From Escherichia phage ECO07P1, in the sequence record OP172784: a DNA stretch of 64,000 bases; one strand, given 5' to 3'. Positions 23,014 through 42,792 of this stretch are shown here, piece by piece. The notes below the pieces were generated by a model. The model was not told the DNA's origin. It ran no database searches and saw nothing but the letters and a program-made list of their open reading frames with translations. Within the stretch, counting starts at the first letter, position 1. Every line of letters begins with the position of its first letter. Position numbers and translations under genes: made by a program.

Positions 23014-23086
23014 TGGGAATTAGCCAAGTTGGTAAGGCACTGGATTTTGATTCCAGGATGCAAAGGTTCGAGTCCTTTATTCCCAG
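23014..23086 (+). tRNA. tRNA-Gln (anticodon UUG)
   Basis: Manual cloverleaf: acceptor tgggaat/attccca, anticodon loop ttTTGat, T-loop GTTCGAG. Confidence 0.85.
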
Positions 23087-23087
23087 C

Positions 23088-23174
23088 GCGAGAATGGTCA
23101 AATTGGTAAAGGCACAGCACTTAAAATGCTGCGGAATGATTTCCTTGTGGGTTCGAGTCCCACTTCTCGCACCA
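23088..23174 (+). tRNA. tRNA-Leu (anticodon UAA)
   Basis: Acceptor gcgagaa/ttctcgc, anticodon loop ctTAAaa, long variable arm, encoded CCA. Confidence 0.85.
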
Positions 23175-23179
23175 AATTT

Positions 23180-23253
<74 letters not shown>

Positions 23254-23263
23254 ATTTAATTTA

Positions 23264-23337
23264 CTCCGTGTAGCTCAGTTTGGTAGAGCGTCTGCTTTGG
23301 GAGCAGAATGTCGCAGGTTCAAATCCTGCCGCGGAGA
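23264..23337 (+). tRNA. tRNA-Pro (anticodon UGG)
   Basis: Anticodon stem tctgc/gcaga, loop ttTGGga; T-loop GTTCAAA. Confidence 0.8.
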
Positions 23338-23339
23338 CT

Positions 23340-23429
23340 GGAGGCGTGGCAGAGTGGTTTAATGCACCGGTCTTGAAAACCGGCAGTCGCTCCGGCGACT
23401 CATAGGTTCAAATCCTATCGCCTCCGCCA
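23340..23429 (+). tRNA. tRNA-Ser (anticodon UGA)
   Basis: Acceptor ggaggcg/cgcctcc, loop ctTGAaa, long variable arm, CCA. Confidence 0.85.
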
Positions 23430-23434
23430 GTTTT

Positions 23435-23510
23435 GCTGATTTAGCTTAGTAGGTAGAGCAACTCACTTGTAATGAGAAGGTCGGCGGTTCGATTCCGTCA
23501 ATCAGCACCA
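23435..23510 (+). tRNA. tRNA-Thr (anticodon UGU)
   Basis: Acceptor gctgatt/aatcagc, loop ctTGTaa, T-loop GTTCGAT, CCA. Confidence 0.8.
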
Positions 23511-23511
23511 A

Positions 23512-23586
23512 GGCCCTGTAGCTGGAAGGTTCAAGCAAGCGACTCATAATCGCCAGATGGTGGTTCAATTCCACCCAGGGCCACCA
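23512..23586 (+). tRNA. tRNA with CAU anticodon (Ile2-type or Met; T4 tRNA-Ile has CAU)
   Basis: Acceptor ggccctg/cagggcc, loop ctCATaa, T-arm ggtgg-ttcaatt-ccacc, CCA. Confidence 0.75.
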
Positions 23587-23599
23587 AATTAAGAATTAA

Positions 23600-23686
23600 G
23601 GGGAGTTATCCCGTAGAGGTAGCGGTGTGGACTGTAAATCCATTGTCATTGCGACTCGGGTGGTTCGACTCCATCACTCCCCACCA
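23600..23686 (+). tRNA. tRNA-Tyr (anticodon GUA)
   Basis: Acceptor ggggagt/actcccc, anticodon stem gtgga/tccat, loop ctGTAaa, long variable arm, CCA. Confidence 0.8.
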
Positions 23687-23690
23687 ATTT

Positions 23691-23765
23691 GGATGTGTAG
23701 CTCAATGGCAGAGCGATCGCCTGTTAAGCGATTGGTTATAGGTTCGAATCCTATCACGTCCGCCA
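23691..23765 (+). tRNA. tRNA-Asn (anticodon GUU)
   Basis: Anticodon stem atcgc/gcgat, loop ctGTTaa, T-arm atagg-ttcgaat-cctat, CCA. Confidence 0.8.
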
Positions 23766-23769
23766 AATC

Positions 23770-23845
23770 CGAGGCATAGCTCAGAAGGAAGAGCAAGGAC
23801 CTTCTAAGTCCTAGGTCGTAGGTTCGATCCCTACTGCCTCGACCA
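23770..23845 (+). tRNA. tRNA-Arg (anticodon UCU)
   Basis: Acceptor cgaggca/tgcctcg, anticodon stem aggac/gtcct, loop ctTCTaa, CCA. Confidence 0.85.
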
Positions 23846-35982: not shown

Positions 35983-36564
35983 ATGGCGAGTTTAATTTTT
36001 ACTTATGCAGCAATGAATGCTGGAAAATCTGCTTCTCTTTTGACTGCTGCGCATAATTATAAAGAACGTGGAATGAGTGTATTAGTTCTTAAGCCTGCTA
36101 TTGATACTCGCGATTCTGTCTGTGAAGTCGTTTCTCGCATTGGAATTAAGCAGGAAGCGAATATTATTACGGATGATATGGATATTTTTGAGTTCTATAA
36201 ATGGGCTGAAGCACAAAAAGATATTCATTGCGTATTTGTAGATGAAGCCCAATTTTTAAAAACTGAACAGGTGCATCAATTAAGTCGAATTGTTGATACA
36301 TATAATGTTCCTGTTATGGCTTATGGTCTAAGGACTGATTTCGCTGGAAAATTATTTGAAGGTTCTAAGGAACTTTTGGCGATTGCAGATAAACTTATTG
36401 AACTGAAGGCAGTTTGTCATTGCGGTAAAAAAGCGATTATGACAGCTCGATTAATGGAAGATGGAACACCAGTTAAAGAAGGTAATCAAATCTGTATTGG
36501 TGATGAAATTTATGTTTCTTTGTGTAGAAAACATTGGAACGAATTAACTAAAAAGCTCGGTTAG
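35983..36564 (+). CDS. tk: thymidine kinase
   Basis: 193 aa; P-loop AMNAGKSASLL; C-terminal Zn-binding Cys pairs. Confidence 0.95.
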   Translation: MASLIFTYAAMNAGKSASLLTAAHNYKERGMSVLVLKPAIDTRDSVCEVVSRIGIKQEANIITDDMDIFEFYKWAEAQKDIHCVFVDEAQFLKTEQVHQLSRIVDTYNVPVMAYGLRTDFAGKLFEGSKELLAIADKLIELKAVCHCGKKAIMTARLMEDGTPVKEGNQICIGDEIYVSLCRKHWNELTKKLG

Positions 36565-36831: not shown

Positions 36832-37125
36832 ATGGCCTTAAAAGCAGCGGCACTATTCGCCATGCTAGGATTAGCGTTTGTTTTATCTCCGCCGATTGAA
36901 GCGAATGTCGATCCTCATTTTGATAAATTTATGGAATCTGGTATTAGACATGTTTATACGCTTTTTGAAAATAAAAGCGTAGAATCATCTAAACAGTTCT
37001 ATAGTTTCATGCGAACGACCTATAAAAATGACCCGTGTTCTTCTGATTTTGAATGTATAGAACGAGGCGCGGAGATGGCACAATCATACGCTAGAATTAT
37101 GAACATTAAATTGGAGACTGAATGA
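36832..37125 (+). CDS. rI: lysis inhibition regulator rI (periplasmic antiholin)
   Basis: 97 aa; MALKAAALFAMLGLAFVLSPPIEANVDPHFDKF matches remembered T4 RI. Confidence 0.9.
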   Translation: MALKAAALFAMLGLAFVLSPPIEANVDPHFDKFMESGIRHVYTLFENKSVESSKQFYSFMRTTYKNDPCSSDFECIERGAEMAQSYARIMNIKLETE

Positions 37126-39612: not shown

Positions 39613-40074
39613 ATGATTATTAATGAAAGCTCTTGGCACTATAAATTATTCAAAATGTTTAATGATGAATGGAAACGACCTAAGACACTGTGCGCGTATT
39701 TTTGGTCTATTGTTATTCCTACATTTTTCGTTTCTTTTTTCGGATGTACTATACTCGCAGGTCTAACTATCATCTGCGCAGAAATTATGCAGAAATGGCT
39801 TATTTTTGGTAGTTTATGGACTCTTATTCCATCAGCATTTATACTTGCCATTTTGCTTGTTTTACTTATTATTGGTTCATTTGTTATTCCTGCACAACTG
39901 CGTGAAAAATATAAAGATTATAAATGGAAAAAGGATTATGCTTTACATGTAGAAAATATTGATAGGGCGTATAAAGGTTTACCTCCTATTCAACCCAAGA
40001 AATCTATTATCGTCGAATTTTTAAAAACGCGTAAAGCTAAAGTATGTCCTGTTATTGAATATAAGGCTGAATGA
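39613..40074 (+). CDS. membrane protein
   Basis: 153 aa; two long hydrophobic segments. Confidence 0.6.
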   Translation: MIINESSWHYKLFKMFNDEWKRPKTLCAYFWSIVIPTFFVSFFGCTILAGLTIICAEIMQKWLIFGSLWTLIPSAFILAILLVLLIIGSFVIPAQLREKYKDYKWKKDYALHVENIDRAYKGLPPIQPKKSIIVEFLKTRKAKVCPVIEYKAE

Positions 40075-41084
40075 TGAAAACTGTAGTTAAGTCTTATTTT
40101 GGTAGTCATCTTTATGGAACTTCTACTCCAGAATCTGATGTAGATTTTAAAGAAATCTTTGTTCCTCCTGCTCGCGATATTCTTATCGGAAATGTTAAAG
40201 AGCATATGAGTAAAAATACTAACAACACATCATCTAAAAACACTAAAGATGATATTGACCATGAACTATACAGTCTTAAGTATTTCTTTAAATTAGCAAC
40301 AGATGGTGAAACCGTAGCATTGGATATGCTCCACACTCCACCTGAACTGGTAGTTAAATCTGATTTGCCTGATGTATGGAAGTTTATTCAAGACAATCGT
40401 TCTCGTTTTTATACGACTAACATGAAATCCTATTTAGGATATGTCCGCAAGCAAGCTTCTAAATATGGTGTTAAGGGTTCTCGTTTGGCCGCATTACGTG
40501 ATGTATTGAAAGTAGTTAATCAAATCCCCGATCAGTGGGTTGATTACCGAGAAGATGGAACACAAGGACAACGTCGTACTAAAATTGCAGATATTAAGCA
40601 TCGTCTTCCAGAAAACGAGTTCTGCGAATGGGTATTCCATAATCATGAGAAAACGGGCCCGCAAACGTTCTATACTGTGTTGGGTCGTAAATATCAAACA
40701 ACGCTTTCTCTTATTGAGCTTAAGCAGTCTTTGAATAAACTTGATGCTGAATATGGTGAACGTGCTCGTAAAGCTGAAGCTAATGAGGGCATTGACTGGA
40801 AAGCACTGAGTCATGCTTGCCGAGGTGGACTCCAACTATTGGAAATTTACAAAACTGGTGACTTAGTCTATCCACTCCAAGACGCTCCATTTATTCTCGA
40901 CGTGAAGTTGGGTAAACATCCATTTAAAACTGTTCAAGAGTTTTTGGAAGATGTGGTCGATCAAGTAGAAGCAGCATCCATTGAAGCTTCTAAGAACGGT
41001 ATGCAGCAAAAAGTAGACATGGGTTTCTGGGATGACTTCCTTGAGAGGGTTTATCTTGAAAACCACCGAAGTTATTATAAATGA
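40071..41084 (+). CDS. Pol-beta-superfamily nucleotidyltransferase-like protein
   Basis: 337 aa; N-terminal G-S-x9-D-x-D motif (FGSHLYGTSTPESDVDF) and downstream acidic residue (ALDMLH). Confidence 0.65.
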   Translation: MMKTVVKSYFGSHLYGTSTPESDVDFKEIFVPPARDILIGNVKEHMSKNTNNTSSKNTKDDIDHELYSLKYFFKLATDGETVALDMLHTPPELVVKSDLPDVWKFIQDNRSRFYTTNMKSYLGYVRKQASKYGVKGSRLAALRDVLKVVNQIPDQWVDYREDGTQGQRRTKIADIKHRLPENEFCEWVFHNHEKTGPQTFYTVLGRKYQTTLSLIELKQSLNKLDAEYGERARKAEANEGIDWKALSHACRGGLQLLEIYKTGDLVYPLQDAPFILDVKLGKHPFKTVQEFLEDVVDQVEAASIEASKNGMQQKVDMGFWDDFLERVYLENHRSYYK

Positions 41085-41086
41085 TA

Positions 41087-41112
41087 GGGAGCCTTCGGGC
41101 TCCCTTTTTTGT
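41087..41112 (+). terminator. rho-independent terminator
   Basis: gggagcc-ttcg-ggctccc then TTTTTT. Confidence 0.65.
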
Positions 41113-41133: not shown

Positions 41134-41164
41134 GTTTACTTCTATCGCAAAGCATATTATAATA
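41134..41164 (+). promoter_or_regulatory. early promoter
   Basis: tcacaaagttGTTTAC, 18 bp, TATAAT. Confidence 0.55.
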
Positions 41165-41209: not shown

Positions 41210-41695
41210 ATGCATATTTTAATGCAATGCCTTGGCAACAAAATTAATGATTTTAATCATAAGCGTGTTAATGATTACATTAAAGACAAACTTGAGATTA
41301 AAGACATACTTTTTAGAGGACTTACAATAGAGGAAGTGCTATCTTATAAGTTTGAAGTTAATAGGAGAATCAAATTTAAAAGAATAACTTCCTTTAGCAG
41401 TGAGTCTCATATAGCTGAAACGTTTGCTGCAGAACGCTATATGACTAATATTTTAGTAGTGTTAAAAAATGCAAACGTTTTTGACTATTCGACTGCTATG
41501 ATTGACATTTTAGAAAATTTAATCGCAATTGAAGAATCTGGCCAAACTGACGATGATAAGCTTAACAAGCTTTATGATAATCTTTGCATGGTAGATTATG
41601 AAAGAGAGTTTTTACTGCCAATTAATTCTGAGTTAATAGTTAAAAACATATATTTTGATAGCAAAAAGAACATGCATATAGTAGAAATGGAATAA
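41210..41695 (+). CDS. hypothetical protein
   Basis: 161 aa; SD gaggag. Confidence 0.6.
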   Translation: MHILMQCLGNKINDFNHKRVNDYIKDKLEIKDILFRGLTIEEVLSYKFEVNRRIKFKRITSFSSESHIAETFAAERYMTNILVVLKNANVFDYSTAMIDILENLIAIEESGQTDDDKLNKLYDNLCMVDYEREFLLPINSELIVKNIYFDSKKNMHIVEME

Positions 41696-41706
41696 ATCAA
41701 CACAAA

Positions 41707-41733
41707 GGGGACCCTAGAGGTCCCCTTTTTATT
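41707..41733 (+). terminator. rho-independent terminator
   Basis: ggggacc-ctaga-ggtcccc then TTTTTATTT. Confidence 0.65.
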
Positions 41734-41787: not shown

Positions 41788-41823
41788 CAACTATCAACTA
41801 CTGATACAGATTTGGAGAATAAA

Positions 41824-42792
41824 ATGAAAACTGTAACTATCAATAAGGGTATCTACTTCGGTAAAGAAATCTCTGGAACTTTTGAGCTCTTAGGCGAATG
41901 GTTCCCAGATAATGCTCCGGTAGATGCACAAGGAGATGGTAAAGTTTTTGTTGAAATTGACGGTAAACGTCGCGGTGTTTGGGTTTACAAATCAGATATT
42001 TCATATGATGGTGTAAAAGTTGAAGAAGTTAAAGAATCATATGAAGATATGAAAACCCGCATTAATAAAAGATTTAATGTTATGGGAATGATGACGAATG
42101 GTATTATTAATGGAAATATTCGTTCATTAATTATCTCTGGCGCAGCAGGTATTGGTAAAACGTATTCTTTAGATAAAGCTTTAAATAAAGCAAATGATAA
42201 TGGATACATTGAATATAAAAGCATTAATGGTAAAATCTCTGGTATTGGTCTTTATGAGCAGCTTTGGAATAATCGTGAAGAGAACTCTGTCCTTTTGATT
42301 GATGATGTGGATGTTTTCTCTGATATGGACATTCTTAATCTTCTAAAAGCTGCTCTGGACACTGGAGAGACCCGTAAAGTCTGCTGGAGCACTGCATCTT
42401 CTTACTTAGAAGAAAAAGGCATTGACCGTGAGTTTGAATTTAAAGGAACGATTGTTTTTATCACAAACGTTGACATTGACCGCGAATTAGACCGTGGTAC
42501 TAAACTTGCTCCACACTTACAAGCATTGGTGTCCCGCTCAGTTTATTTGGATTTGGGTGTTCACACTAATGAAGAAATTATGGTCAGGGTTGAAGATGTT
42601 ATTCTTTCAACTGACATGATGCAAAAGCGCGGTCTTTCTGATGAAGAAACTTATAAAGCATTATCATGGATGAAAGTCAATGTTAATCGTTTACGCAATG
42701 TTTCACTGCGTACTGCTCTTTATCTTGCTGACTTTATTATGACCGACAAAAACGGTTGGGAAGAAATTGCTGAGGTTACTCTTCTGAAATAA
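41824..42792 (+). CDS. AAA+/P-loop ATPase
   Basis: 322 aa; Walker A GAAGIGKT, Walker B VLLIDDVD. Confidence 0.7.
   Translation: MKTVTINKGIYFGKEISGTFELLGEWFPDNAPVDAQGDGKVFVEIDGKRRGVWVYKSDISYDGVKVEEVKESYEDMKTRINKRFNVMGMMTNGIINGNIRSLIISGAAGIGKTYSLDKALNKANDNGYIEYKSINGKISGIGLYEQLWNNREENSVLLIDDVDVFSDMDILNLLKAALDTGETRKVCWSTASSYLEEKGIDREFEFKGTIVFITNVDIDRELDRGTKLAPHLQALVSRSVYLDLGVHTNEEIMVRVEDVILSTDMMQKRGLSDEETYKALSWMKVNVNRLRNVSLRTALYLADFIMTDKNGWEEIAEVTLLK

Follow-up and report, generated by a model that had tools for sequence, protein, structure and literature searches.

NrdC.11 of Escherichia phage ECO07P1, an RlaP-family nucleotidyltransferase with a candidate role in RNA repair

Escherichia phage ECO07P1 carries the gene nrdC.11 at positions 40071-41084 (+ strand) of a 64,000-nucleotide stretch of DNA from sequence record OP172784; this whole stretch, a segment of a Tequatrovirus (T4-type) genome, is referred to here as the window. 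An earlier note, drawn up from the letters of this DNA, had proposed that the open reading frame (ORF) encodes a nucleotidyltransferase (NTase) of the Pol-beta fold, and the locus thereby raises the question of what such an enzyme would act upon, whether a broken RNA, some other RNA end, a protein or small molecule, or a nucleotide signal. The explanation favoured here, at somewhat better than even confidence, is that NrdC.11 is a metal-dependent, template-independent RNA 3'-terminal NTase that puts back nucleotides lost from cleaved tRNAs by trimming, after which the Pnkp and RNA ligase of the phage could make these tRNAs functional again.

The presence of a Pol-beta NTase at this locus was already known. 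The RefSeq product name of T4 NrdC.11 is 'nucleotidyltransferase', orthologues were matched to the COG3541 nucleotidyltransferase domain by Nolan et al. in 2006 (PMC1524935), and the protein has since been filed under RlaP in the literature. The earlier note, whose 337-amino-acid (aa) ORF and placing in the rI-nrdC block, between rI (36832-37125) and the nrdC.x genes, are both correct, missed the identity of the ORF with T4 nrdC.11, a predicted NTase since 2006. The literature search found no experimental work on the NrdC.11 protein itself, and what the present analysis offers is a prediction that invites a test, more than a discovery.

NrdC.11 as a conserved member of the RlaP family

Counted from the first ATG, the ORF comprises 337 aa, and the protein is 96% identical (323/336) over its full length to T4 NrdC.11 (NP_049709), listed as an 'uncharacterized 38.9 kDa protein in the nrdC-mobD intergenic region'. 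The two are orthologues occupying the same place between the rI/mobD block and nrdC.10. The best match among phage records shares 99.4% identity with the window protein, and nrdC.11 is present in at least 1,525 sequenced phage records. The ratio of nonsynonymous to synonymous substitution rates (dN/dS) is 0.09 and 0.11 against orthologues at 77% and 67% nucleotide identity, respectively, and nrdC.11 is therefore a functional gene under strong purifying selection.

The protein matches the Pfam family RlaP (PF10127) with an E value of 7e-11 and 42.7 bits against a curated cutoff of 23, residues 8-135 aligning with profile positions 24-142 of 249; Pfam describes this family as 'RNA repair pathway DNA polymerase beta family'. 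PF10127 is matched by 50/50 diverse NrdC.11 relatives, with no other Pfam family found among them, and the PHROGs match is phrog_388 'nucleotidyltransferase' (E 8e-135), while NCBIfam and PADLOC searches with the protein returned no match. A HMMER scan of 1.84 billion representatives retrieved 3,393 clusters at E<=1e-3, of which 819 reached E<=1e-30, with the 310-350 aa architecture persisting in these relatives to about 35% identity.

Conservation was assessed in an alignment of 50 relatives at 34-55% identity, in all of which G11, S12, G16, S22, D23, D25, N57, D63, Y132, R231, K244, H248, R251, and P268 are invariant. The N-terminus FGSHLYGTSTPESDVDF was found as the earlier note gave it, with the GS and DxD elements of the signature in place and a spacing of G11-S12-x(10)-D23-x-D25, one residue longer than the x9 first described. 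Signature spacings of x9-13 are typical of the Pol-beta superfamily (Aravind & Koonin 1999; Kuchta et al. 2009), and x10 falls within this range. G11-S12, the hG[GS] motif (40101..40106, + strand), is placed by the structure model at the junction of strand 1 and the following helix, and D23-V24-D25, the metal-binding DxD that opens strand 2 (40137..40145, +), pairs with the SDYDVR motif of canonical RlaP. The later acidic residue that had been pointed out is D63 (40257..40259, +), the predicted third catalytic carboxylate on strand 62-68, which pairs with the invariant D75 of canonical RlaP. Downstream, K244-x3-H248-x2-R251 within the 'DWKAxSHAxR' motif (40800..40823, +) pairs with canonical K152-x3-Y156-x2-R159 in an extended alignment, and these three residues are predicted to touch the nucleoside triphosphate (NTP) or the RNA. 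The full Pol-beta catalytic apparatus is judged from the sequence to be present and conserved in NrdC.11, because the motif residues are invariant among the 50 relatives and align with the motifs of canonical RlaP.

Profile-profile comparison by hhalign with 12 canonical RlaPs of 255 aa gave a probability of 94.5% and an E value of 7e-8 over residues 4-96, pairing GS with GS (canonical S30/G31 type), DxD with DxD (canonical D42/D44), D63 with D75, and D85 with E97. The C-terminal domain alone aligned with canonical RlaP at an E value of 0.15 and in the wrong register; removal of the insert described below yielded a full-length alignment with sensible motif pairing, the score not being raised. 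NrdC.11 thus resembles canonical RlaP in its PF10127 match, in GS, DxD, and the third Asp, and in K-x3-[HY]-x2-R at an equivalent place.

The AlphaFold model of NrdC.11, with a predicted local distance difference test (pLDDT) score of 93.5, includes the Pol-beta NTase core, a second domain made up of helices, and a beta-rich insert. The core (residues 1-115; 40071..40415, +) contains strands 3-10, 24-31, 45-49, and 62-68 with helices between them, its pLDDT being mostly above 95. It is followed by a long connecting helix (residues 119-150; 40425..40520, +) bearing the invariant Y132 and the near-invariant Y124, Q128, K131, G136, and R138, by the insert (residues ~151-212; 40521..40706, +) with modelled strands 155-159, 165-169, 185-190, 198-203, and 206-209, and by the C-terminal helical domain (residues 213-337; 40707..41081, +), which holds the invariant R231, K244, H248, R251, and P268 and closes with helix 317-336. 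The connecting helix is the best conserved region, at 0.55, and the insert the least, at 0.26 against 0.47-0.55 elsewhere; the insert may serve substrate recognition. The modelled order of NTase domain, helical domain, and terminal helix may correspond to that described for Pseudomonas fluorescens RlaP (PfRlaP), with the insert as an addition and with no significant sequence homology in the C-terminal domain.

The credible structural neighbours of the model are all NTases, none of them close. A BFVD fold search found shorter phage NTases, possible members of PF10127, most of whose length could be aligned with the model (TMt 0.6-0.9), and a Protein Data Bank (PDB) sequence search with the protein and the family profile gave no match in a copy of the database lacking the PfRlaP structure. 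Profile membership, residue conservation, the high-confidence model, and the uniformly NTase character of its structural neighbours bear out the Pol-beta-fold core first proposed. The two objections the earlier note had raised against itself do not hold, the fold being that of an NTase and the relatives retaining their catalytic residues.

RNA-repair operons and the choice between explanations

PF10127 received the name RlaP because the family is linked to RNA ligases (Burroughs & Aravind 2016, cited in PMC12776372). RlaP was found by Iyer et al. in 2021 to be the most prevalent NTase of jumbo phages, with a distribution mirroring that of RNA ligases, and was predicted to put back nucleotides removed by, for example, RloC, ahead of ligation (PMC7824862). 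A preprint of December 2025 by Carruthers, Fatma & Huang reports that the RlaPs of P. fluorescens and P. aeruginosa (PfRlaP and PaRlaP) add 1-2 nucleoside monophosphates (NMPs) to the 3'-OH of RNA, accepting any NTP and also dATP, preferring Mn2+, and leaving DNA and protein unlabelled; given a nicked tRNA mimic, both act preferentially on its 5' half, and they partly rescue the aminoacylation of a tRNA missing one anticodon-loop nucleotide, and the crystal structure consists of an NTase and a helical domain, the last helix packing back on the NTase (PMC12776372).

The genomic surroundings of NrdC.11-clade members were compared in 78 viral and 80 cellular loci, in which ORFs were called and the neighbours searched. 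At least one of canonical RlaP (14 loci), RtcB (8), a Pnkp ligase domain (7), or Ro60 (5) lies within 10 kb in 25 of the 80 cellular loci, a lower bound, many cellular contigs being short; a few loci counted as cellular (L080, L081) look phage-derived. Canonical RlaP is the commonest Pfam family among the 150 immediate neighbours of the cellular NrdC.11-like genes, and where it occurs it lies directly downstream on the same strand in 12/14 loci, the stop and start codons often overlapping. The Nitrosospira locus L112 (5558-18629) is the fullest illustration, with a divergent RtcR followed by Ro60, RtcB, RtcA, the NrdC.11-like gene, canonical RlaP, Hen1, an AAA_5 ATPase and, further on, Pnkp. 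The tandem of a long RlaP and a 255-aa canonical RlaP recurs in 11 more loci (among them L084, L097, L110, L127, L130, L133, L140, L147, and L149). The cellular NrdC.11 clade and canonical RlaP are accordingly both residents of RtcB/Pnkp RNA-repair operons.

By analogy with the two assayed Pseudomonas RlaPs, a mechanism can be outlined in which the RNA substrate, the number of added nucleotides, and the role in infection are inferred. Two divalent metal ions, probably Mn2+, would be held by D23, D25, and D63, and one or a few NMPs would be moved from NTPs to the 3'-OH of a broken RNA. When host anticodon nucleases trim tRNA halves, as in wobble-base excision of the RloC type, NrdC.11 would replace the lost nucleotides, after which the phage Pnkp (healing) and RNA ligase 1 (Rnl1, sealing), encoded elsewhere in T4-type genomes, would rebuild a functional tRNA. 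That phages can answer host defence by repairing RNA was first exemplified by the T4 pathway of Pnkp and RNA ligase 1. RloC wobble excision has been proposed to defeat phage tRNA repair, and it has been open since 2008 whether wobble-excising nucleases such as RloC defeat the T4 pathway (PMC2610378). Were NrdC.11 to put excised nucleotides back ahead of ligation, T4-type phages would own a three-enzyme repair system, and RloC-type defences would not be the trump card that was proposed.

Several observations weigh against this explanation. That long and canonical RlaPs are consistently paired in cells suggests that the two are non-redundant and possibly differ in activity, and because of this pairing NrdC.11 may differ in specificity from the assayed RlaPs, which is the main reason why confidence in a repair role is not higher. 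NrdC.11 is also about 80 residues longer than canonical RlaP and carries the extra beta-rich insert of some 60 aa, only its N-terminal 95-130 residues being demonstrably homologous to the canonical protein. The enrichment of repair genes in the cellular loci is uncalibrated against random windows and is argued from the fact that such genes occur at most once in genomes of several megabases. On the phage side, neither a ligase nor Pnkp was found among the window neighbours of nrdC.11, RtcB lies near the phage homologues in 1/78 loci, and no T4-type RNA ligase was found among 134 neighbours in distant phages. T4-type phages carry pseT, rnlA, and rnlB elsewhere in the genome, beyond the window. 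In the preprint, T4 NrdC.11 is named as an RlaP family member 'of unknown function' in cluster 5 of the sequence similarity network, the assayed cluster being 1a; the assays cover PfRlaP and PaRlaP, both outside the NrdC.11 clade, and the repair role of RlaP itself, drawn from in vitro data, is called 'potential' by its authors (PMC12776372). Additionally, the T4 segment nrdC.11-mobD.3 can be deleted in the laboratory, and loss of nrdC.11 is not known to confer a phenotype (PMC9825161).

The alternative that survives best, considerably less likely and still tentatively worth entertaining, is that NrdC.11 acts on RNA 3' ends in another way, tailing host or phage transcripts for decay or stabilisation or maintaining the CCA ends of phage tRNAs. 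In favour of such an activity, many E. coli RNAs are substrates of the assayed RlaPs, rRNA and full-length tRNA among them, and any NTP serves for the labelling; the window also encodes ten phage tRNAs, and phage nrdC.11 has no operonic link to ligases. The families expected for it were nevertheless unmatched: poly(A) polymerases and CCA-adding enzymes (PF01743 class), with their PolyA_pol head domain and tRNA-binding body and tail domains, gave no Pfam or NCBIfam match and are absent among the top fold matches, and the position of the cellular clade inside operons with ligase, Pnkp, Hen1, and RtcA points to the repair of breaks rather than to tailing. Maturation of T4 tRNAs uses the host CCA enzyme, which argues against a CCA activity of the phage.

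It is unlikely that NrdC.11 nucleotidylylates a protein or small molecule and so alters a host target, in the manner of the aminoglycoside NTases (KNTase/ANT), DrrA, or GlnE. The likeness that suggests this is confined to the level of the fold, with 7-16% identity and template-modelling (TM) scores of at most 0.33; for the kanamycin NTase/ANT(4'), whose substrates are small molecules, and the 'nucleotidyltransferase-like protein' 3c18, identity is 7-10%, TM is likewise at most 0.33, and there is no sequence-family match. RlaP is the sole family matched by sequence, canonical RlaPs left proteins unlabelled, and the cellular context is one of RNA repair.

Lower still in probability stands the idea that NrdC.11, in the way of HalB or a CD-NTase, produces a signal made of nucleotides or oligonucleotides, or fakes one against host defence. 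Hailong HalB (PDB 9dbh/9dbj), which makes oligo-dA as a defence signal, is 16% identical to NrdC.11, and the family sequence profile detected neither it nor any other PDB sequence. CD-NTase/SMODS gave no Pfam or PADLOC match, and cGAS, DncV, and OAS are missing from the credible fold matches. The cellular relatives adjoin RNA-repair genes rather than HalA-like channels or Cap effectors, and canonical RlaPs halt at 1-2 additions. In nrdC.11 there is no Hailong arrangement, in which a HalB-type NTase synthesising oligo-dA adjoins a HalA channel, and NrdC.11 is without a HalA partner; nor is there an MNT-HEPN arrangement, in which a stand-alone NTase of ~100-150 aa accompanies a HEPN RNase with Rx4-6H. 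Of the functions that the earlier note had listed with reserve, nucleotidylation of RNA is thus the one favoured here, and the suggestion of cyclic nucleotides or interference with immune signalling finds no support.

That NrdC.11 is a remnant, either dead in catalysis or purely structural, for which nothing speaks beyond the dispensability of the gene in the laboratory, is highly improbable given the invariance of all its catalytic residues across relatives at 34-55% identity, a dN/dS of about 0.1, and its retention in so many phage records.

Phage neighbourhood and the NrdC.10 ATPase

The earlier note had also drawn attention to an AAA+ ATPase two genes downstream. The gene there is nrdC.10 (41812-42792, +), encoding a 326-aa P-loop NTPase with a Walker A motif GAAGIGKT and a Walker B-like LLIDDVD, which belongs to phrog_1250. 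A P-loop ATPase is indeed present, and its AAA+ assignment is not established, all AAA/STAND Pfam matches lying under the curated cutoffs and a PDB sequence search finding no relative. A homologue lies within 10 kb of nrdC.11 in 35/78 phage loci and in 0/80 cellular loci, and among the loci examined nrdC.10 is limited to T-even-like phages. In the window, the two genes stand apart, with two terminator-like hairpins and an inserted cassette between them, and a comparison of NrdC.10 with the MoxR-type AAA ATPase found in the cellular repair operon showed no similarity (E 8.6). The hint of a partnership was rejected on these grounds; co-occurrence, hairpins, cassette, and the lack of kinship with the repair ATPase mark NrdC.10 as a syntenic neighbour in T-even-like phages and not as a conserved partner.

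On the + strand, the upstream part of the region runs through tk (35983-36564), rI.1, rI, rI.-1, and small mobD.x ORFs, and then through two y05I/MobD.1-like genes, a membrane-protein gene, nrdC.11, a 161-aa ORF, nrdC.10, and nrdC.9. The y05I/MobD.1-like genes are tandem paralogues (PF24449 and PF24448; 38523-39610, +) ahead of a 153-aa predicted membrane protein of phrog_944 (39613-40074, +), whose stop overlaps the nrdC.11 start and whose homologue stands alongside nrdC.11 in 40/78 phage loci. In T4 the position directly upstream of nrdC.11 is taken instead by the HNH homing endonuclease MobD. The first ATG of nrdC.11 shares ATGA with the stop codon of the membrane-protein gene, and AAGG (40063..40066, +), read from the sequence as a Shine-Dalgarno-like element with a presumed role in initiation, precedes the first ATG by 4 nt and the second, at 40074, by 7 nt; the T4 annotation begins at this second ATG, giving 336 aa. 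A GC-rich hairpin (8 bp, 6 of them GC) followed by a T-run (41086..41105, +) begins 2 nt past the nrdC.11 stop; it is terminator-like, as a consensus match, and would part nrdC.11 from the cassette that follows.

That cassette is found in the window phage between nrdC.11 and nrdC.10 and is missing from T4. Its 161-aa ORF (41210-41695, +) bears the R-S-ExE motifs of ADP-ribosyltransferases (LFRG, TSFSS, YEREF), matches phrog_832 'RNA polymerase ADP-ribosylase' (1.8e-23), and is labelled 'NAD--protein ADP-ribosyltransferase' in phage EP01. With a promoter-like site at 41135-41163 and a terminator-like hairpin at 41704-41728 flanking it, the ORF looks like a self-contained promoter-gene-terminator cassette. 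Its relatives comprise about 43 phage records above 90% identity and 177 below 60%, the latter mostly from Klebsiella T4-like phages.

In distant phages the neighbourhoods of nrdC.11 are heterogeneous, with NAMPT recurring five times. KVP40-like and other large phages (L057-L059, L065, and others) carry NAD-salvage genes ~1.5-4 kb downstream of the nrdC.11 homologue, namely NAMPT (PF04095 and PF18127) in 5 loci and a NadR-like cytidylyltransferase-NUDIX protein, with no functional link evident.

Elsewhere in the window, a cluster of 10 tRNA genes (23014-23845, +) specifies Gln, Leu, Gly, Pro, Ser, Thr, Met/Ile-CAT, Tyr, Asn, and Arg, and forms a relevant background if NrdC.11 acts on tRNAs. 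T4 itself has eight tRNAs, and Tyr and Asn would be the extras in the window.

Database records of nrdC.11 orthologues are often labelled 'thioredoxin' in GenBank/UniRef, as for the T2 cluster representative and phages Killian and vB_EcoM_Nami, and one is labelled 'HNH homing endonuclease'; these labels appear to be errors spread from the nrdC.x name or from the adjoining gene. Additionally, the T4 RefSeq record NC_000866.4 contains an ambiguous base within nrdC.11 (L001:9436-10446), where a codon GTN is rendered as X at residue 101.

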